This document shows positions 12,836 to 19,425 of a stretch of 32,000 nucleotides of DNA, one piece after another. Position 1 is the first letter of the stretch, and the number at the start of each line of letters is the position of its first letter. Source of the DNA: an uncultured Anaeromyxobacter sp. GTDB lineage: Bacteria; Myxococcota; Myxococcia; Myxococcales; Anaeromyxobacteraceae. Made by a program: the position numbers and the translations under genes. Under the pieces are notes generated by a model, which worked only from the letters and a program-made list of their open reading frames with translations, had not been told where the DNA came from and did not search any database. The stretch is taken from NCBI GenBank assembly GCA_903874275.1, contig CAIQRS010000027.1:1-32000 (forward strand), read 5' to 3'.

Positions 12836-13777
12836 ATGGGTGGTGACTTGCAAGATTGGCGCGTCCTCCTGTGCGCGGCGCTCCTCCTTGGCTTCACCGG
12901 CAGCCCGGCGCCGGCCGTCGCGCAGGCTCCCCGGAACCTGTTTCCCGTGAAGCCGGTGGTCTGGGACCCCGCGCCGCCGGACCGCAGCCTCGGCATCGGC
13001 AACGGCCGTTTCTTCTCCTACGCCCTCCCGCCGGGCTGGCGCGTCGGGGAGGACGGCCAGTACGCCTTGACCCTTGCCGCGCCGGACAGCAGGGCCTTCA
13101 CGGTGATGGTGGGCAACGCGGGGCTCCCCCTCGACCATCCGTGCGGCCGGTTCGTCCACGACAAGCTCTCGGCACTGAAGCCGGAGAACCTCCAGATCGG
13201 GCAGCCCCGGAAGGCGGCTCCGATCGCCGGCTTCGCCCACGCCTACCAGTTCGACGTCACCTACTCCATCCGCGGCGTGGCCTGCCGCGGGACCGTCAAG
13301 TGTCACGTCGCCCCGGCCTACGACACCGTGGTGATGGCGATGACCGCGGCACTTTCCGAGGCCAGCCAGTGGCCGGGGTACGCTTCCTGGCTGCCCCTGG
13401 TCGCCGAGCAGATCTCCGCCACCAGTGGCGCCGCCTTCGGAAGGCGCGGGATCATGGCCCAGAATCTGAAGGACTCCGCCGCGTACGCCGAGGCGGCTCG
13501 CCAGTACCGCGACTGGTCCCGGCGCACCTGGCAGCAGGTGGCCGACGACAGGAACGCCTCCCAGGACCGCAAGGCGTACCAGGTGCGGGAGAACCTCGGC
13601 GCCGTCCAGACCTACGTGAATCCCTTCGGGACGGGCGCGCCGGTGCAGCTGCCCACGACCTACAAGTACTACTGGAGCGACGACCAGGGCGGCTTTCTCG
13701 GGAGCAACGACCCGAGCGCCAACCCCAACCTGGGCTCCACCACCGAATGGAAACGGATGGCGCCGTACAATCCGTGA
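12836..13777 (+). CDS. Secreted hypothetical protein (paralogue of the next gene)
   Basis: ATG 12836 preceded by GGGGAGG. Signal peptide ...VLLCAALLLGFTGSPAPAVAQA. 313 aa with no recognisable catalytic motif. Its domain and tail organisation is shared with 13799..15268. Confidence 0.8.
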   Translation: MGGDLQDWRVLLCAALLLGFTGSPAPAVAQAPRNLFPVKPVVWDPAPPDRSLGIGNGRFFSYALPPGWRVGEDGQYALTLAAPDSRAFTVMVGNAGLPLDHPCGRFVHDKLSALKPENLQIGQPRKAAPIAGFAHAYQFDVTYSIRGVACRGTVKCHVAPAYDTVVMAMTAALSEASQWPGYASWLPLVAEQISATSGAAFGRRGIMAQNLKDSAAYAEAARQYRDWSRRTWQQVADDRNASQDRKAYQVRENLGAVQTYVNPFGTGAPVQLPTTYKYYWSDDQGGFLGSNDPSANPNLGSTTEWKRMAPYNP

Positions 13778-13798
13778 AGTCGGCAGGGGGGAGCAGCC

Positions 13799-15268
13799 AT
13801 GTCGAAGTCCATCGGTTTCACCTTGCTCTTCCGGTCGATGGTCGGCGGCGCACTCGCGGCAGCGGTCGCACTTCCGCTGGCGGCCTGCTCGTCGGGGCAG
13901 GCCGATGCGGCCCCGGCAGGATACGAGGTCGTCCGCGCCATCGACTCCGGCAAGGCGCTGTCCAGGCGCGTCCCGCAGGCCAAGACGGTTCGTGACGCCC
14001 TGCGAACGACCTTGGCGGATCTGGAACGGTACTTCGGCTCGAAGGTGCACCTGCGAGGAGCCTACGAGGACACCCGGGATCACCTGGCCGGCGGCGCCGG
14101 GTTCCAGGGGCAATTCGGGGGGCGGCCGATCCAGGGCATCATCTCCTGCCGGGTCGGCCCGGACGGCGCCTTCGTCGTCGTGGTCTATGCAAATGGCGAC
14201 GCGCCCCGGAGCGAATGGGCGCAGCTCCTCGCGGCCTCGCCCAGCGAGGGCTCCAGGCCGGATTCCCGGACCGCGGAGGCGGCCAGCTCCCCACCAGGGG
14301 CGGCGTCCTTGAAGCCCTACAAGTTCCCCGATGGAACCGGGATGATGGGCATCGCCGACGGCTGGCGCACCAGCGCCCAGTCGTGTGCCGGCCCGGTTCT
14401 GGTGCAGGGCCCAGCCGATCAGTCCGTCGGGATGGGACTCAGCTGGAGCGTGAGCACCCCCGATTCACTGGCGGTTCAGAACCATCGGCAGATGGTGGCG
14501 ACCGCGCGGCAGCTCGGCTCCCCGCCTCCCCGGTTCGAGATGCTGGTGGCGCCCTTCTCCGGGCCGCTGGATGCGATCAAGAACCTCGCGCCGCAGCTGA
14601 GCGAGATGGCGGCTCGCACGGGCGGACGGCCCTTCCAGATCGACAAGCCGGCTCTCGGTCAGGAGATGCGCCCGAGCGTCGCAGGCGGCAGGGCGGCGAT
14701 GGTCACCTACGGCTTGTCGGAGAAGGGTGCCGACGGGCGCGTCCGGCACTACCGGGCCGAGGCCTACCTCGAAACGAGCCCTCTCGGACAGGGAGCCTGG
14801 ATGATGCAGGGGGTCATCATCCGAGCCCCCGACGCCTCCTTCGAGCGCGACCTGCCGACGATGCGGGCGATGGTGTACTCGCTGAGGGAGGATGCCCAGG
14901 TCATCCAGCAGAAGACGCAGCAGGCCTTGAACGCCCAGAACCAGTGGTTCCAGGCGCAGCAGCAGGCTCATCGGCAGCAGGTCGAGGGGTTCGAGCGCCA
15001 GCAGCAGGCGCACCGGGAGGCGACGAAGGCCCGCGACCGACAGAACAAGGACTGGGAGAAGAACCAGAACGCGACGTCGCGAACGCACGACGACTACGAC
15101 GAGGTGCTCCGCGGTTACCGGACGGTCGAGGACACGCGCAGCGGGGTCAAGACCAGCGTCGATCTGGGAAACGTGGACGTCATCGTGGACAAGCTGAACG
15201 AGGCTGACCCCGGCCGGTATCGACAGATCCCCCTGCGCGACGAGATGAACCCCCTTCCCGGACGGTAG
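13799..15268 (+). CDS. Hypothetical lipoprotein with Gln-rich coiled-coil-like segment
   Basis: 489 aa. Lipobox LPLAAC|SS. Internal Gln-rich stretch QQKTQQALNAQNQWFQAQQQAHRQQVEGFERQQQAHRE. The C-terminal half resembles the preceding gene. Confidence 0.8.
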   Translation: MSKSIGFTLLFRSMVGGALAAAVALPLAACSSGQADAAPAGYEVVRAIDSGKALSRRVPQAKTVRDALRTTLADLERYFGSKVHLRGAYEDTRDHLAGGAGFQGQFGGRPIQGIISCRVGPDGAFVVVVYANGDAPRSEWAQLLAASPSEGSRPDSRTAEAASSPPGAASLKPYKFPDGTGMMGIADGWRTSAQSCAGPVLVQGPADQSVGMGLSWSVSTPDSLAVQNHRQMVATARQLGSPPPRFEMLVAPFSGPLDAIKNLAPQLSEMAARTGGRPFQIDKPALGQEMRPSVAGGRAAMVTYGLSEKGADGRVRHYRAEAYLETSPLGQGAWMMQGVIIRAPDASFERDLPTMRAMVYSLREDAQVIQQKTQQALNAQNQWFQAQQQAHRQQVEGFERQQQAHREATKARDRQNKDWEKNQNATSRTHDDYDEVLRGYRTVEDTRSGVKTSVDLGNVDVIVDKLNEADPGRYRQIPLRDEMNPLPGR

Positions 15269-15282
15269 GCGCGGCCTGGCGT

Positions 15283-16602
15283 CTACTCCGGACGCAGCTG
15301 CAGGCGGGCCTGCGACTTGAACGTGGGCTGCAGGTCGGTCCCGTCCGCGCCGGAGACCCGTCCGAACTCCAGGTCCACGGTGAGCAGGTGGGGTGGCTTT
15401 CCCAGCAAGAGGTGGCCGGAGATTCGAACGTAGGCCTGGCCGTCGCTGGCCCGGCCGGTGCGCATCCCCTCGAAGGAGACCCGGTCGCCGTCGCGCGTGG
15501 CCCGCACGGTCATGGGAAAGAAGCCGGGTGACTGGTTCGCGGGCGCGAAGGTGAACGAGTCCCGCGGTCCCAGGTACCACTTCGCCTCGCCCACGAGGGA
15601 GCGGCCGTGCCCGCGAGCCTCGGGACTTCCGAGGTACTGGTTGAAGGCCAGGACCTCGGCCGTCGCGAAGGCGAGGCGCTGCTCGGCGGGTTTCGGGGGA
15701 GCGTGGTCCGTGCGCGCGGGCTCGGCCGTGGCCACCGCCGCGGGCGGCGAATGGGGCACCTTCGCCGGCGCCGGGGCCCTCGACGGGGGCGAGCCGTTCC
15801 CGGGCGGCGGGCGGGCGGGGGCCTTCACCGGGGATGGCTTCGGCGGGGCGACGGCCGCCGAGGGAACGGCCACCGGCGAGGCATGAGCGGTGGATTCAGG
15901 GGGCGCGGCAGGCGCGACGGGCCCGCCCGACTTCCCCACCGGAATCGTCGCTGCAGGAGGCGCGGTGGCTGCGGGGGGAGCGTCGGGTCTTCCCTCCCGG
16001 AGGGTCAGGACCGCGACGACGCCCCCGATCGTGGCGAGAATGGCGGCTGCCGCGAGCCCGACCCAGAGCCGCCTGCGAGAACCCGACCCGGACTGGCCGA
16101 CCCTTCTCTTCAGGGTCTCGACGAGCTGCGAGACGTTGTGGTCCCAGTCCTGCTCGGTGAGCTGGAGGCATTGCCGGCTCAGCAGGCCGTTCAGCGACTC
16201 GGGGAGGTCGTCCTCGGCAGGGAGCGCCGCTCCTCCGACGAGCACGGGGATCACGAGGACGTCCGGGCGGCGCAGCGCCGTCCCGATCTCCAGGGCCACC
16301 ACGTCCCGCGGGTCCTTGAGCCGGCGCCTCCCCGCGGCGTCCGTCACCCCCGCCCACGCCTTCCCGATGAGGACCAGGACCACCTTGCAGCTCCCCACCG
16401 TGTGCTCGATCTCCTCCAGGTAGTTCACGCCTGGTGCGAGCCCCTTCACGTCCATGAAGACCTGGCCGGGGAAGGCGCGCTCCAGCGCGTAGAGCAGCGC
16501 GCGGGCCTGGCCGCCGCTGTCCTCGCGCCGGTAGTTGACGAAGATGGCGCGGCTGGGATCGGAACGCTCCCCGTGCCTCGCCTCCCCGGTCCCCTGGCTC
16601 AC
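15283..16602 (-). CDS. Membrane-anchored TIR-domain protein: N-terminal TIR, one TM helix, Pro/Ala-rich spacer, C-terminal domain of unknown fold
   Basis: The last 439 codons of track ORF 15283..17697. GTG 16602-16600 overlaps the RyR gene stop (GTGA), with GGGAAGGGAGGGG upstream. TIR_2-like motifs: IFVNYRREDS, VFMDV, CKVVLVLIGKAW, DVVALEIGTAL, VIPVLVGGAALP. The TM helix follows RRR (LWVGLAAAAILATIGGVVAVLTL). A Pro/Ala-rich segment of ~100 aa follows, then a ~130-aa beta-rich tail. Confidence 0.88.
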   Translation of the reverse strand: MSQGTGEARHGERSDPSRAIFVNYRREDSGGQARALLYALERAFPGQVFMDVKGLAPGVNYLEEIEHTVGSCKVVLVLIGKAWAGVTDAAGRRRLKDPRDVVALEIGTALRRPDVLVIPVLVGGAALPAEDDLPESLNGLLSRQCLQLTEQDWDHNVSQLVETLKRRVGQSGSGSRRRLWVGLAAAAILATIGGVVAVLTLREGRPDAPPAATAPPAATIPVGKSGGPVAPAAPPESTAHASPVAVPSAAVAPPKPSPVKAPARPPPGNGSPPSRAPAPAKVPHSPPAAVATAEPARTDHAPPKPAEQRLAFATAEVLAFNQYLGSPEARGHGRSLVGEAKWYLGPRDSFTFAPANQSPGFFPMTVRATRDGDRVSFEGMRTGRASDGQAYVRISGHLLLGKPPHLLTVDLEFGRVSGADGTDLQPTFKSQARLQLRPE

Positions 16603-16913
16603 CGCGCCCCTCCCTTCCCGGACGGACCGTGGATGCCGAAGCCGAGCGCACAGAGGGCCTTCAGGGTCTCGCCCACCGCGATGCGGTCGTACTTCTTCTC
16701 CTCCTCGGGGAGTTCCTCGTAGGGCACCAGGCTGGGGTGGAGCCTGGCCGCCTCGTCGCGGTGCGGACCCCACCGCCACCCGTCCGAGAGCCGCTCCAGG
16801 GCCCAGGCCTCGTGGGCGTTGCGGGCGAGCAGTTCCAGGACGGCCGCCACCTCGGCGGGCAACCGCACCGTCGCGGTGTCCAGGGGTGCGGGTTGATATC
16901 GTTTGGACGGCAT
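16599..16913 (-). CDS. Small RyR (ryanodine-receptor repeat, Pfam RyR-like) domain protein
   Basis: 104 aa from ATG 16913 (the track start 16925 is a TTG). LLARNAHEAWALERLSDGWRWGPHRDEAARLHPSLVPYEELPEEEKKYDRIAVGETLKALCALGFGI matches the bacterial RyR-domain pattern (HE.W....GW.yG......k.HP.lvPy.eLpeeeK.yDR). Confidence 0.85.
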   Translation of the reverse strand: MPSKRYQPAPLDTATVRLPAEVAAVLELLARNAHEAWALERLSDGWRWGPHRDEAARLHPSLVPYEELPEEEKKYDRIAVGETLKALCALGFGIHGPSGKGGAR

Positions 16914-16982
16914 GACCGGACCCAACTCTCGCGCACCTCTGGTGGAATTTCACAATGCCTCGTTCATGGTAGCTTCGAGGGA

Positions 16983-16992
16983 CCCATATGGG
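16983..16992. repeat. Perfect 10-bp palindrome CCCATATGGG in the divergent intergenic region
   Basis: Read directly from the sequence. It lies in the 136-bp, visibly AT-richer spacer between the RyR/TIR and OMP/SLATT operons. Function unknown (candidate operator). Confidence 0.3.
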
Positions 16993-17049
16993 CGGGGACG
17001 AGGGGGCAGCGATCGGGCACTCTCGGGCTCCATCGACGGGGGGCGCACG

Positions 17050-17739
17050 ATGAAGCGACTTTGCGTGGTGTTGTTCCTGGCCGTGGGGATCCTCTCCGCG
17101 GGGCGCGCGTCGGCGCAACAGGGGGTTGACCCGTTCCTCAAGTCGGCGCCCCCGGGGCCACCCGAGAGCGGCGTCTCCATCGGGTTGAGCGTCGGGTACG
17201 CGCTGCCCATGGGCAACGTCAGCGGCTCCCAGCCGATGAGCGACCTCTTCAGCGGGGCCCTCCCGCTCCAGCTCGACGTGGGGTGGCGCTTCACGCCGAA
17301 TCTCTACGCGGGAGCCTTCTTCCAGTACTCGTTCGGCTTCCTCAGCTCCTTGCAGAACGCGGCGTGCACCGCAAACGGCTGGACGAGCTGCACTGGTGGT
17401 GACATGCAGTTCGGCCTGGACTTCGTCTACACCTTCCTGCCCTACGCGACGTTCGCGCCCTACGTGGGGCTGGGCGTGGGCTGGGAGATCGCGACCCTCA
17501 GCTACTCGGGCTCGAACCAGTCCATCTCGGAGTCGGTCTCGGGATTCCAGTTCGCGCGCATCCTCGTGGGCGGGGACTTCCGGGTGGGGTCGGCCTTCCG
17601 GGTCGGGCCCTTCGTGAACTTCTCCTTGGGCCAGTTCAGCAGCCTGAGCTCCCCGGACCCGGCCGCCAACGGCACGATCGCCAACAAGGCGCTCCACGAG
17701 TGGCTCCAGTTCGGGATCAAGGGCACCGTCGACCTGTGA
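17050..17739 (+). CDS. Small outer-membrane beta-barrel protein (OmpW/OMP_b-brl-like)
   Basis: ATG 17050, 229 aa. Signal peptide MKRLCVVLFLAVGILSAGRASA|QQ. Alternating amphipathic strands (LQLDVGWRFTP, MQFGLDFVYTF, YVGLGVGWEI, FRVGPFVNFSLG, WLQFGIKGTVDL). One Cys pair, CTANGWTSC. Confidence 0.8.
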   Translation: MKRLCVVLFLAVGILSAGRASAQQGVDPFLKSAPPGPPESGVSIGLSVGYALPMGNVSGSQPMSDLFSGALPLQLDVGWRFTPNLYAGAFFQYSFGFLSSLQNAACTANGWTSCTGGDMQFGLDFVYTFLPYATFAPYVGLGVGWEIATLSYSGSNQSISESVSGFQFARILVGGDFRVGSAFRVGPFVNFSLGQFSSLSSPDPAANGTIANKALHEWLQFGIKGTVDL

Positions 17740-18656
17740 CCGGGGGCGTGCAGACCGGGCCCCCCTCGTTCGACGCCTACCCCGGCCTGTACGTCGCGGC
17801 CGACGCCGCCGCGGTCTCGCTGCAGCGCCAGCACTTCCTGGGCGAGGCGGTGCTTCTGGTCCTGAACCCGCTCAGCGCGGCGCTGGTCCTGGCCATCGCG
17901 CTCGGCGTGGTGCGCTTGCAGTTCGCCGTGCTCACCGCCTTCTCCACGACGCTGCTCGTCCTCGTGCTCTGGGTGGTGCGTGCCAGCCGATGGCAGAACC
18001 AGTGGTACGACTGCCGCAGCGCCGCGGAGGACCTGAAGCGGATCACCTGGCGCTACCTCATGCAGCTCGATCCGTTCCCGCCCGGCGCGCCTGCTCCGGA
18101 CGCGAGCTTCGTCCGCGCCATGGAGGAGGCGGTGCGCGACCATCCCGACGTCCTTCGCGCGCTGGGCAGGCGCGCCCACGTCCTCGCGCCTCCGGTCACC
18201 CCCGAGATGCAGCGGATCCGGCGGGCCAGCGCGTCCGAGCGCGCCGAGATCTACCTCGCCTCCCGCCTTCGCCCCGAGGCGGCCTGGTACGCAGCCAAGG
18301 CGGAGCGCTTCGCCGCCGCGGACCGGAGGTGGTTCGCCGGACTGATCCTCGTGCAGGTCGCGGCGGTGGTCTCGGCCATCGTCCTGGCAGCGCGGGTCCA
18401 GGGAGGGGGAGCCGGGAGCGCCGCCGCGGACAGCTGGGTCCCCATGCTCACGGCCTTCGGGACCGCGCTCATGGGCTGGCAGCGCTCCAAGCGCCATGCG
18501 GACCTGACGATGTCCTACTCCGCCACGGCGCAGAAGCTGGCCGGATTCGAGTCCAGCCGGCCGCCGCTCGCGGAGCCGGCCGCCTACCTTTCCTGGGTCG
18601 AGCGGGTGGAGGCGACGCTCGCACAGGAGCACGAGGCCTGGCGGCACATGACGTAG
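17736..18656 (+). CDS. Tandem 2TM+2TM SLATT/DUF4231-like membrane protein (predicted membrane effector family)
   Basis: GTG 17736 overlaps the OMP stop (GTGA), 306 aa. Hydrophobic pair 1 (AVLLVLNPLSAALVLAIALGVV / FAVLTAFSTTLLVLVLWVV) is followed by WQNQWYDCRSAAEDLKRITWRY. The second unit has RLRPEAAWYAAKAERFAAADRRW, then two more helices (FAGLILVQVAAVVSAIVLAA / WVPMLTAFGTALMGW). These are the patterns I associate with SLATT and DUF4231 families. Confidence 0.75.
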   Translation: MTGGVQTGPPSFDAYPGLYVAADAAAVSLQRQHFLGEAVLLVLNPLSAALVLAIALGVVRLQFAVLTAFSTTLLVLVLWVVRASRWQNQWYDCRSAAEDLKRITWRYLMQLDPFPPGAPAPDASFVRAMEEAVRDHPDVLRALGRRAHVLAPPVTPEMQRIRRASASERAEIYLASRLRPEAAWYAAKAERFAAADRRWFAGLILVQVAAVVSAIVLAARVQGGGAGSAAADSWVPMLTAFGTALMGWQRSKRHADLTMSYSATAQKLAGFESSRPPLAEPAAYLSWVERVEATLAQEHEAWRHMT

Positions 18657-18678
18657 CGCCGCCAGGTCGGGTGGACGG

Positions 18679-19377
18679 TCAGAAGAGCCGGTATCCGGCG
18701 AAGGCCTGGACCATGAACGCGAAGGCCGCCGAGGAGTTCTTGGCCGTGGGGATCATCACGCCGAAGCGGGTGTTCAGGCCGATGGCGATGTTCGGATCGT
18801 CGAAGTGGTACTCGACGTAGGGGCCTGCCCAGGGGCCGATGACGAAGTTCACCGGGTCGGTGACGTTGAGCGCCAGGTTGAGATCGAGTCCGCCGCCGAT
18901 CTCGAGGTTGTGCGCCACCGGGAAGCCTCCCACCACGCCCGCCGGGAAGGTGAAGGCGAACAGGGTCTTGCTCGTGTCGTAGCAGAAGCTGGTTCCGGCC
19001 ACGCAGGTGCTGCCCGAGAAGTAGAGCCGGACCCCCGGATCGACGTGGAACACGAGGTTGAACTTTTCCCCCTTGATGAACTGGAAGCGCAGCGGCGCCC
19101 AGAGCCCGAGGCCGAACTGGGTGTAGGTCGTGCCCTCGAGGCCGTAGAGGAGGCCGAAGCGGATGCCCATGTCGGACGCCTTGCCCAGGTTGAACGTGTA
19201 GCCGAAGTTGACGTTCGGCCAGCCAGCCTGGACGTCCTCGAATGGCTTGCCGGTATTGATCTCGCTGCCGACGACGCTCCAGTCCCCCAGCCCCTTGCCA
19301 TGCTGGGAACGCTGGGCGTGCACGGCGACGGGGGCGATGGCGAGTGCGACGGCGACGGCCAGCATCGGGAATCTCAT
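18679..19377 (-). CDS. Small outer-membrane beta-barrel protein
   Basis: ATG 19377 with GGAGGAG upstream, 232 aa. Signal peptide MRFPMLAVAVALAIAPVAVHA|Q. Canonical C-terminal beta-signal ...AFAGYRLF. One Cys pair, CVAGTSFC. Confidence 0.85.
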   Translation of the reverse strand: MRFPMLAVAVALAIAPVAVHAQRSQHGKGLGDWSVVGSEINTGKPFEDVQAGWPNVNFGYTFNLGKASDMGIRFGLLYGLEGTTYTQFGLGLWAPLRFQFIKGEKFNLVFHVDPGVRLYFSGSTCVAGTSFCYDTSKTLFAFTFPAGVVGGFPVAHNLEIGGGLDLNLALNVTDPVNFVIGPWAGPYVEYHFDDPNIAIGLNTRFGVMIPTAKNSSAAFAFMVQAFAGYRLF

Positions 19378-19425
19378 CGGTTGCTCCTCCGGGTTGGGGC
19401 CATGGACGGACAGCGAGCCCAATGG

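Follow-up and report, generated by a model that had tools for sequence, protein, structure and literature searches.

A possible outside-in TIR receptor in a barrel- and RyR-associated gene cassette of Anaeromyxobacteraceae

The window, the 32,000-nucleotide stretch of contig CAIQRS010000027.1 (uncultured Anaeromyxobacter sp., GenBank assembly GCA_903874275.1) that was analysed, contains a cassette of two divergent, translationally coupled gene pairs. In one pair a RyR-domain gene precedes a TIR gene, and in the other an outer-membrane (OM) beta-barrel gene precedes a gene for a SLATT membrane protein (Table 1). The members of each pair overlap in the sequence GTGA, which joins the stop codon of the upstream RyR gene to the GTG start of the TIR gene and, as read from the sequence, the stop codon of the barrel gene to the start of the SLATT gene. 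The SLATT gene is part of the divergent operon and lies 1.1 kb from the TIR gene, with two genes between them. An alignment of 8 intergenic regions separating the two pairs revealed a conserved motif, CGTTCATGGTAGC, at 16961-16973 and a conserved palindrome, CCCATATGGG, at 16983-16992. No sigma-70-like promoter was found in this region, and a promoter and terminator scan of positions 15000-19000 gave nothing informative.

Table 1. Coordinates of the cassette genes, their parts and an accessory gene in the window.
Feature	Position	Strand	Description	Basis
TIR gene	15283..16602	-	GTG start; 439-aa protein, predicted bitopic	translation, orthologs, tblastn across loci
C-terminal domain (CTD)	15286..15687	-	~130-aa beta domain	AF2, Foldseek, identity to kinase C-termini
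Pro/Ala spacer	15688..16005	-	residues 200-305, 106 aa	composition, ortholog alignment
Transmembrane (TM) helix	16006..16062	-	residues 181-199, RRR before	Kyte-Doolittle
TIR_2 domain	16120..16545	-	residues 20-161	Pfam PF13676
RyR-domain gene	16599..16913	-	104 aa from ATG 16913; stop overlaps TIR start	Pfam RyR
Divergent intergenic region	16914..17049	.	136 bp, conserved motifs	alignment of 8 intergenic regions
OM beta-barrel gene	17050..17739	+	229 aa, 8 strands, signal peptide	AF2, Foldseek
SLATT_3 + SLATT_1 membrane protein gene	17736..18656	+	306 aa from GTG 17736	Pfam, NCBIfam
Second putative OMP gene	18679..19422	-	accessory	

The four genes occur together in 12 distinct loci of Anaeromyxobacteraceae (the window, L001, L003, L005, L006, L010, L012 and L021-L025), and the RyR and SLATT genes, together with those of the TIR protein and the barrel, define the system. 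The flanks are unrelated among the loci in which they were inspected. In the window the neighbours of the cassette are housekeeping genes, and the surroundings are not a defence island. Since the conservation is seen in one bacterial family only, shared ancestry could account for part of it. The defence-system models of PADLOC gave a weak ThsB match at 25 bits and no system-level match, and the NCBIfam ThcB4 model scored 30 bits on the TIR protein against a cut-off of 220, so that there was no equivalog match.

The TIR reading frame is a real gene, as full-length orthologs with 65-84% identity are encoded in metagenome bins of Anaeromyxobacteraceae. A preliminary description, made from the window alone, had divided its product into a TIR_2-type domain (residues ~18-165), a hydrophobic helix following RRR (~179-201), a Pro/Ala-rich spacer of ~100 residues and a beta-rich C-terminal domain of ~130 residues without a recognised motif, and all four parts were recovered with closely similar boundaries. 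That description had overlooked the RyR gene and the SLATT gene. The TIR_2 match has an E value of 8e-9 and 36.5 bits, above the Pfam gathering score of 28. When a profile of the domain was searched against the PDB, the sole matches were to the TIR domain of SARM1 (E 7e-4). Glu105 (E105), which is invariant across 15 orthologs, is aligned in this comparison with the KE-I glutamate of the SARM1 segment 'WVHKEIVTAL', a residue that we take to be E642 in SARM1 numbering. E105 is the putative catalytic glutamate, and an activity of the NADase type is predicted. Because the domain resembles that of SARM1 and the catalytic glutamate is kept, it is probably an enzyme and not a scaffold.

The helix was assigned by a hydropathy scan, as distinct from a dedicated topology predictor; its peak (Kyte-Doolittle 2.43) follows the sequence SRRRLW and has the same position in all full-length orthologs. 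Of the 15 residues flanking it on the N-terminal side, 5 are Lys or Arg and none is acidic; the C-terminal flank of the same length has 2 Lys or Arg and 2 Asp or Glu. The spacer consists of 29% Pro and 25% Ala and varies in both length and sequence, forming an indel-rich, badly aligned block in the ortholog alignment. The charge bias of the helix flanks, the absence of a signal peptide from the N-terminus, the existence of single-pass kinases that end in the same C-terminal domain and the secreted type of its free-standing homologs are indirect lines that favour a bitopic inner-membrane protein of N-in/C-out topology. They agree with the placement proposed earlier, in which the TIR domain is cytoplasmic and the CTD lies outside. 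It had also been considered that homologues might routinely be devoid of the helix and the tail. Among 47 non-orthologous TIR homologs, however, 36 have a TM-like segment directly past the TIR domain, followed by a tail of 120-450 aa, and the TIR-TM architecture is widespread. Near the remoter TIR-TM homologs P0024, P0038, P0031 and P0026, however, none of the RyR, SLATT and barrel genes is found, and the complete cassette is therefore clade-specific. A 321-aa variant seemingly devoid of the TIR domain (P0009) was set aside as an assembly error, its contig holding several fragmented genes.

The AlphaFold2 (AF2) model of the CTD has a mean pLDDT of 91.3 and comprises a long strand, a helix and then seven strands. 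Conservation of the domain is strong, and 28 of its positions are invariant. A Foldseek search of the PDB and BFVD returned nothing below E 1e-3. The only matches were weak ones to avidin-like up-and-down barrels (TM-score ~0.4, E > 1e-3), and because of their weakness no fold was assigned. The CTD represents a new family and is predicted to be extracytoplasmic. Remote homologs were collected by an HMM search of 1.8 billion representatives; in 19 of the 27 free-standing ones the N-terminus is strongly hydrophobic and resembles a signal peptide, in some cases with a lipobox. The search also picked up giant adhesins with Ig repeats (CshA, He_PIG, Big_9), which were rejected as relatives, their matches being partial and driven by a repeated 35-aa hairpin motif that was hit many times. 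A pattern-limited scan of GTDB genomes found at least 6 CTD loci, a lower bound, all of them in Anaeromyxobacteraceae.

The barrel was modelled by AF2 with a pLDDT of 87.7 as 8 long strands, and Foldseek matched it at probability 1.0 to NspA, the TM domain of OmpA, Ail and OmpW. Its score against Pfam OMP_b-brl (26 bits) is slightly under the cut-off of 28.7. Surface loop 2 holds a pair of cysteines, Cys106 and Cys114. The N-terminal periplasmic tail, QQGVDPFLKSAPPGPPESG, is conserved as GVDPFLKxAPPGPPESG. No other 18-mer in the family is conserved to the same degree (mean pairwise identity 0.73, as compared with 0.54 for the barrel), yet the tail is disordered in the AF2 model. It is missing from more distant barrels without a linked CTD; one of them, P0124, has neither an adjoining CTD gene nor the tail motif.

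The CTD and the barrel are also found together with a different output. Single-pass Ser/Thr kinases end in a CTD that is 57-60% identical to that of the TIR protein, and their genes are divergently paired with a barrel homolog of 35-43% identity. At one such locus (L007) a gene for an FHA-GAF-cyclase protein follows the barrel gene, at the place occupied by the SLATT gene in the TIR cassette. The barrel family accompanies the CTD in every locus with enough flanking sequence, whether the CTD belongs to a TIR protein or to a kinase, and the barrel and the CTD therefore behave as a portable input module. The suggested link of the CTD to OM proteins encoded next door is supported for the barrel, with which the CTD may be in contact. 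It does not extend to the second OM protein, which has no Pfam match and no homology to the barrel and is confined to a sub-clade (present in L001, L005, L010, L021 and L022, absent from L003, L006, L012, L024 and L025), nor to the two secreted proteins (genes at 12836..15268), which are kept in the closest relative only. The co-occurrence of CTD and barrel over two chemistries is a solid observation, as are the domain identities, the topology indicators, the gene overlaps, the conservation of the cassette and that of the catalytic and ligand residues.

The ligand residues are those of the RyR protein, which matches Pfam RyR (PF02026) with an E value of 1.3e-30 and is encoded in all cassette loci. 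Residues H34, W37, H59 and D76 (numbering of the 104-aa protein) are invariant among the cassette orthologs, and their spacing (+3, +25, +42) equals that of H75/W78/H100/D117 in the phage protein RyDEP and of H129/W132/H154/D171 in RyR Tad. In RyDEP these residues bind or cleave 2'/3'cADPR, a second phage RyR protein binds canonical cADPR as well, and hydrolases and sponges of the RyR family are, according to the same preprint, not separable by sequence (PMC13232231; bioRxiv 10.64898/2026.06.04.730250). Of 46 other metagenomic loci with RyR genes related to that of the cassette, 16 have a TIR gene within ~3 kb, and no other family is as frequent next to these genes as TIR. The linkage of RyR and TIR genes is general.

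The SLATT protein matches SLATT_3 (1e-24) and SLATT_1 (5e-19) in Pfam at 87.9 and 69 bits, in addition to DUF4231, and two NCBIfam models at 1.8e-29 and 1.3e-28 (102.9 and 99.6 bits); the scores given are above the cut-offs. It has strong TM peaks at residues 38-56 and 200-218, and another hydrophobic stretch comes after each of them. A tblastn search of the PLSDB plasmids gave no match to it.

From these components we infer how the parts are connected, what the signal is and what triggers the system, as follows; the cassette looks like a form of TIR nucleotide signalling that is set off from the envelope. The best model, to which an even chance of being correct is given, leads from an envelope input through the TIR domain and a cADPR-type signal to the opening of the SLATT protein, with the RyR protein as a buffer. 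The SARM1-like, probably catalytic TIR domain would face the cytoplasm, and the spacer would hold the CTD in the periplasm. The barrel and the CTD would form the envelope-input module, the disordered tail of the barrel being a candidate ligand of the CTD. A change in the envelope, such as phage adsorption, envelope damage or cell contact, would alter the engagement of the CTD; this may change the clustering of the TIR domains and switch on the cleavage and cyclisation of NAD+. The cADPR-type product would then gate the 4-TM SLATT protein and change the permeability of the membrane. The co-translated RyR protein would bind or hydrolyse the messenger, setting a threshold and allowing a reset. 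Several observations were counted against this model: the division of TIR and SLATT between divergent operons, the lack of significant similarity to two validated type VII ThsB TIR domains, the weak ThsB profile matches, the housekeeping neighbours, the remoter TIR-TM homologs that occur without the other genes, a CTD fold without a characterised relative, conservation seen within a single family, and a TM helix assigned by hydropathy.

An alternative purpose is signalling of envelope state or cell contact in Myxococcota outside immunity, in which the TIR domain makes a messenger, the SLATT protein is a regulated channel and the RyR protein is a phosphodiesterase-like terminator, with no abortive infection. 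The molecular mechanism is shared with the best model and the purpose alone differs. The same barrel and CTD input is also wired to an ordinary pathway of Ser/Thr kinase and FHA-GAF-cyclase, the flanks are of the housekeeping type, and the defence databases yielded no system match, all of which speak for such a role. It is nevertheless considered unlikely, in view of the fact that SLATT and TIR proteins have so far been documented in conflict systems and that the surroundings of the cassette differ from one related genome to another, in the manner of mobile defence modules.

Quite improbable is a conventional, Thoeris-like abortive infection triggered in the cytoplasm, in which the TIR domain itself senses a phage component, the helix, spacer and CTD merely tether it near the SLATT protein and the barrel is a passenger. 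The combination of TIR and SLATT domains is that of type VII Thoeris, and the characterised ThsB proteins are described as infection sensors that are activated only on phage infection (PMC11204291). A mere tether, however, needs no folded periplasmic domain conserved to this degree at the end of a spacer of ~100 aa. In addition, the CTD and the barrel move jointly onto a kinase output, the barrel and SLATT genes overlap, and the window shows no defence-island context. A further alternative is that the TIR protein acts alone, as an effector that depletes NAD+, or serves as a scaffold without enzymatic activity, the adjacency of the RyR and SLATT genes having no functional meaning. This would suit the many remoter TIR-TM homologs without these genes but is made very improbable by the RyR/TIR start-stop overlap, by the constancy of the four-gene order across 12 loci, whose flanks are unrelated where inspected, by the prominence of TIR among the neighbours of related RyR genes elsewhere and by the conserved catalytic glutamate.

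Taken as a whole, the fuller reading, in which the barrel and the periplasmic domain of an outside-in TIR receptor report a surface event to a SARM1-like TIR domain, its cADPR-type product opens the SLATT protein, a cell-encoded RyR protein is the sink of the signal and the animal cADPR-ryanodine-receptor axis has its origin in prokaryotes, is rather doubtful. If it is true, TIR signalling would be triggered from the envelope by a logic like that of Toll-like receptors (TLRs) and could act before or at the entry of phage DNA, whereas the TIR systems of Thoeris are described as soluble sensors of infection inside the cell. The RyR protein of the cassette would be the first off-switch of TIR/cADPR signalling on the side of the host. 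Encoded by the cell and translated jointly with a TIR protein, it would, together with the linkage at 16 of 46 loci, provide candidates for host-side clearance of the signal. In type III CRISPR signalling the role of signal clearance belongs to ring nucleases. The presence in one cassette of an enzyme class that makes cADPR, a RyR domain and a channel, along with the RyR-TIR linkage, is what would suggest such a prokaryotic origin. The exchange of one barrel and CTD input between TIR/SLATT and kinase/FHA-cyclase outputs is a natural experiment on what that input senses. In the literature consulted, largely outside subscription journals, no description was found of membrane-anchored TIR receptors of bacteria or of cell-encoded RyR proteins in TIR operons.

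Among the known systems, type VII Thoeris comprises pairs of TIR and SLATT proteins that defend against phage via canonical cADPR (Yirmiya et al., bioRxiv 10.64898/2025.12.03.692087). The cassette shares with it (ThsB TIR and ThsH SLATT) the linkage of a TIR gene to the gene of a SLATT membrane protein and, by analogy, the expected logic of a TIR-made, NAD-derived nucleotide that acts on a SLATT pore. It differs in that the TIR protein is membrane-anchored and has a domain predicted to be periplasmic, the TIR and SLATT genes belong to separate divergent operons in place of the typical two-gene operon, two further genes (RyR and OM barrel) are constant, the SLATT protein is double (SLATT_3+SLATT_1) and there is no defence-island context. 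A BLASTP comparison of the TIR protein with the two validated type VII ThsB TIR domains of Table S1 of that preprint gave a best E value of 0.57, which is not significant.

The phage proteins RyDEP and RyR Tad have the PF02026 family and the His/Trp/His/Asp spacing in common with the RyR protein of the cassette. They are viral anti-defence proteins, which destroy or sequester the signal of the host, and before RyDEP no enzyme degrading 2'/3'cADPR was known, according to its authors (PMC13232231; bioRxiv 10.64898/2026.06.04.730250). In contrast, the RyR protein of the cassette is encoded by the cell and translationally coupled to the TIR protein that would produce the signal, which implies self-regulation, by a threshold or a reset, or a relay. 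SARM1 has the closest TIR domain of solved structure in the profile search, sharing the N-terminal motif FI(S/N)YRR...SG.Q.A.LL in addition to the aligned catalytic glutamate. Cytosolic ARM and SAM domains control it, whereas here regulation would run via the TM helix and the periplasmic domain.

The likeness to animal TLRs seen in the preliminary description is one of logic only: both would have a single pass, an outside domain and a cytoplasmic TIR domain, and hence an outside-in logic. The orientation, however, is reversed, as TLRs are type I proteins with the N-terminus out and a C-terminal TIR domain, and the TIR domain here is N-terminal and the ectodomain C-terminal. The TLR ectodomain consists of leucine-rich repeats (LRRs), for which the small beta domain gave no matches, and the TIR domain of TLRs is an adaptor scaffold, whereas the one described here is probably enzymatic; no homology extends beyond the TIR domain. 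The Ser/Thr kinases of the PknB/PASTA type are alike in having a cytoplasmic catalytic domain, one TM helix, a linker and an extracytoplasmic sensor, and differ in that their output is phosphorylation and not, as would be the case here, an NAD-derived nucleotide. The kinases that share the CTD and the barrel partner with the TIR protein likewise belong to Anaeromyxobacteraceae.

The TIR gene belongs to a cassette of four genes encoding an RyR-domain protein, the TIR protein, an outer-membrane barrel and a SLATT protein. The GTG start of the TIR gene overlaps the stop of the RyR gene, and the barrel-gene stop overlaps the SLATT start, each within the sequence GTGA; on this reading the unit is two divergent, translationally coupled pairs, RyR-TIR and barrel-SLATT. 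The preliminary description had suggested contact with the neighbouring outer-membrane proteins (OMPs), an idea with substance for one of them, and had missed the RyR and SLATT genes. The SLATT_3 and SLATT_1 matches have E-values of 1e-24 and 5e-19 in Pfam and of 1.8e-29 and 1.3e-28 in NCBIfam. By context look-ups and tblastn, the four genes are found in unchanged order at 12 distinct loci (the window and comparison loci L001, L003, L005, L006, L010, L012 and L021-L025). Where flanking genes are listed, they differ between loci and are unrelated: type III PKS, ClpB and polyprenyl synthase; trigger factor and a GH3 glycosidase; a beta-lactamase-family protein and a radical SAM enzyme; ClpX/ClpP and CO-dehydrogenase genes. 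We regard the identities of the components, and the cassette itself, as near certain.

Coordinates of the cassette, its surroundings and the comparison loci
Feature	Position	Strand	Description
Two upstream secreted proteins	12836..15268 (first 12836-13777, second 13799-15268)
TIR gene	15283..16602	minus	439 residues
RyR-domain gene	16599..16913		upstream of TIR; 104 aa; PF02026, E 1.3e-30
RyR/barrel intergenic region			divergent; 136 bp
Conserved motif	16961-16973		CGTTCATGGTAGC
Conserved palindrome	16983-16992		CCCATATGGG
Outer-membrane barrel gene	17050..17739	plus	229 aa, signal peptide
SLATT gene	17736..18656	plus	306 aa; SLATT_3 + SLATT_1
Second 'OMP'	18679..19422
Kinase cassettes	L007:3596-8151 (= L014); L008:320-3495 (= L009)		kinase-TM-CTD + divergent barrel
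RyR beside TIR, examples	L035:341-3912; L037:702-2526; L063:3147-7427; L061:1767-4264; L044:2485-4282
NUDIX-TCAD9-RyR fusion	L053:1274-4282
TCAD9-RyR as read	L064:1751-4282
TIR-TM protein P0024	L017:2282-6272
TIR-TM protein P0026	L020:4639-8017
Cassette copy with damaged genes	L072:2582-5966

The two secreted proteins, named earlier as candidates for an interaction test, are conserved in the nearest relative only and thus fall outside the cassette. Both are secreted or lipoprotein-like and went unmatched in Pfam, NCBIfam and PADLOC; the second carries a Gln/Arg-rich, probably coiled C-terminal segment. The divergent intergenic region holds a conserved motif and a palindrome (consensus ACCCATCTGGGC), the latter recognisable in seven of eight aligned cassette loci and a possible regulator site. 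In one cassette copy, L072, the SLATT gene is fragmented and the TIR gene truncated at its N-terminal end; assembly error is more probable there than gene decay, other genes on the contig being fragmented too.

The architecture of the TIR protein is as first described: Pfam, hydropathy, composition and AlphaFold2 recover the TIR domain, the RRR motif, the hydrophobic helix, the Pro/Ala spacer and the beta domain. The TIR_2 domain spans residues 20-161 (E 8e-9; 36.5 bits against a gathering score of 28). In a hydropathy scan a single segment, 181-199, stands out as strongly hydrophobic (score 2.43); it is directly preceded by SRRRLW and followed by a spacer (200-305) of 29% Pro and 25% Ala. The G+C content of the window is ~72%. 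Full-length homologs of 65-84% identity occur in Anaeromyxobacteraceae metagenome bins, and among 15 aligned sequences conservation is good in the TIR and C-terminal (CTD) domains, the spacer being variable and indel-rich. Four indirect lines agree with the topology proposed earlier, in which the TIR domain is inside and the CTD outside. The charges follow the positive-inside rule (five K/R and no acidic residue in the 15 residues on the N side of the segment, two K/R and two D/E in the 15 on the C side); the N-terminus has no signal peptide and TIR requires cytoplasmic NAD+; an identical TM-spacer-CTD arrangement stands behind kinase domains; and free-standing CTD relatives mostly have signal-like N-termini.

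The PDB matches to the ortholog profile were SARM1 TIR structures only (E 7e-4), which have the N-terminal motif FI(S/N)YRR..SG.Q.A.LL in common with the window protein. Its E105 aligns with the Glu of SARM1 WVHKEIVTAL, which we take to be the catalytic E642 (SARM1 numbering), and is invariant among orthologs, so that the domain is probably an active NAD+-consuming enzyme. Homologues do not routinely lack the helix and tail, a possibility raised in the preliminary description: in 36 of 47 non-orthologous TIR homologs the N-terminal TIR is followed within ~110 residues by a TM-like segment, and this by a tail of 120-450 aa. The Pfam families matched on these homologs include PASTA, PAN/Apple, periplasmic-binding-protein, TPR and WD40. 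N-terminal TIR, TM and variable tail thus form a widespread architecture, of which no account was found in the searchable literature. At L017 there are two Tle1-like (DUF2235) hydrolase genes, and the gene for a remoter homolog overlaps the stop of the second; this partner set differs from that of the cassette although the TIR-TM architecture is the same. At L020, a 121-aa unknown ORF overlaps the start of a 653-aa TIR-TM protein, and a second, convergent TIR_2 gene lies downstream.

The CTD (last ~130 residues) is modelled by AlphaFold2 as one long strand, a helix and then seven strands (mean pLDDT 91.3, pTM 0.84). Foldseek found no confident structural relative, the best being avidin-like eight-stranded barrels (TM-score ~0.4, E > 1e-3). 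Searching 1.8 billion representative proteins with a profile recovered ~27 small free-standing relatives (E 1e-9 to 1e-3); 19 of the 27 begin with a strongly hydrophobic, signal-like segment, and a lipobox is present in several. The CTD is also the sole part that the TIR protein has in common with Ser/Thr kinases of 716-753 aa from Anaeromyxobacteraceae, recovered in the homolog search (residues 308-428 against 585-705 of kinase P0022, 58% identity), which have one TM, near residue 440. At both kinase loci with usable flanks a barrel homolog lies divergently upstream of the kinase (35-43% identity to the window barrel, E 1e-44 to 1e-60). At L007 an FHA-GAF-guanylate-cyclase protein follows the barrel gene, in the position of SLATT in the window, and judged by its genes this type of locus is a parallel cassette with different output chemistry. 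The barrel and CTD are thus combined with two different cytoplasmic chemistries: TIR and SLATT in one case, a kinase together with a phospho-Thr reader and cyclase in the other. No other evidence speaks as strongly for the pair being an input module. The suggested link to the neighbouring OMPs is accordingly narrowed to the barrel that accompanies the CTD on TIR or kinase; the second 'OMP' is kept in closer relatives only.

The barrel model has eight long strands (pLDDT 87.7) and matches NspA, the OmpA transmembrane domain, Ail and OmpW (Foldseek probability 1.0). Its mature N-terminus, GVDPFLKxAPPGPPESG, is poorly modelled (pLDDT < 50 at residues 19-30; 10-residue block means of 41 and 63 over 21-40). 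No 18-residue stretch of the family is more conserved than this tail, whose mean pairwise identity is 0.73 against 0.54 for the barrel; against kinase-linked barrels, the values are 0.61-0.72 and 0.36-0.43. The tail motif is found in the kinase-linked barrels and absent in remoter barrel homologs, and no CTD protein adjoins the one remoter homolog whose context was checked. We propose the periplasmic tail as a candidate CTD ligand. Residues 106 and 114 are a nearly invariant Cys pair within the loop that joins strands 3 and 4. This loop includes a short helix and is predicted to be exposed at the cell surface, where a disulfide may staple it.

Lopez Rivera et al. (PMC13232231) showed 2'/3'cADPR to be hydrolysed or sequestered by phage RyR-domain proteins, the ligand residues being H75, W78, H100 and D117 and the catalytic dyad H75/D117, and a phage RyR sponge binds canonical cADPR too, with sub-micromolar Kd (10.64898/2026.06.04.730250). 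The window RyR protein has H34, W37, H59 and D76 at identical spacing, invariant among cassette orthologs. Both preprints cover viral proteins only; a cell-encoded RyR gene in a TIR operon is mentioned neither there nor in the Thoeris survey (10.64898/2025.12.03.692087), and recurrent RyR-TIR adjacency was not found in these preprints. A metagenome scan with cassette RyR proteins gave 51 loci, five of them further cassette copies. In the other 46 (L026-L071), with RyR identities of 44-58% and G+C of 36 to 75%, TIR_2 is by far the commonest neighbour family (5 of 20 and 10 of 84 sampled neighbouring ORFs). An iterated TIR profile placed a TIR protein within ~3 kb of RyR in at least 16 of the 46, a lower bound as many contigs are short. 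Chance would yield, by rough estimate, well under one such locus, which supports a functional RyR-TIR partnership in cells, beyond phage counter-defence. Many of these TIR genes are directly adjacent and on the same strand, and their architectures include TIR-TPR, TIR-WD40, TIR-STAND and short TIRs.

Two loci, L053 and L064, encode large RyR fusions with a ~1000-aa TIR-containing protein ~0.9 kb downstream. Since ADP-ribose is a substrate of NUDIX enzymes, the NUDIX-TCAD9-RyR fusion fits an RyR role in NAD-derived signal processing. Another RyR operon recurs in genomes of 41-45% G+C (L028, L036, L038, L039, L041, L046, L047, L048 and L051); where flanks were captured, the order is a DUF2130 protein, RyR (108 aa), proteins of 283 and 441 aa without a Pfam match, and a TPR protein.

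Gene linkage, residue conservation and precedent suggest how the cassette may be wired. An envelope event would act on the barrel and CTD and cause TIR clustering; the clustered TIR would make a cADPR-type messenger, which would change membrane permeability through SLATT and be buffered by RyR. We give this model as a whole an even chance. It has two main rivals. In one the trigger is cytoplasmic, with the CTD a mere tether. In the other the cassette serves physiological signalling, not immunity; this second reading is kept alive by the kinase parallel and by the housekeeping context, the rest of the window encoding PKS III, ClpB, TruA, an M16 peptidase, a multihaem cytochrome, UbiD and menaquinone genes, with no defence island among the neighbours.

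The likeness to animal Toll-like receptors drawn earlier is not one of homology, the orientation of the TIR protein being reversed and LRRs absent. Yirmiya et al. (bioRxiv 10.64898/2025.12.03.692087) validated TIR+SLATT operons as type VII Thoeris, whose SLATT effector is believed to breach the membrane in response to canonical cADPR made upon infection. The cassette has the same domain content. Unlike type VII Thoeris, however, its TIR has no detectable relation to two TIR domains of validated type VII systems (E 0.57 at best in BLASTP), TIR and SLATT lie in divergent operons without defence-island context, and two further genes are constant; curated defence models do not recognise it. Assignment to type VII Thoeris was rejected on these grounds. 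We describe the cassette as a new variant that probably works like type VII Thoeris, taking its input from the envelope and carrying its own signal sink.
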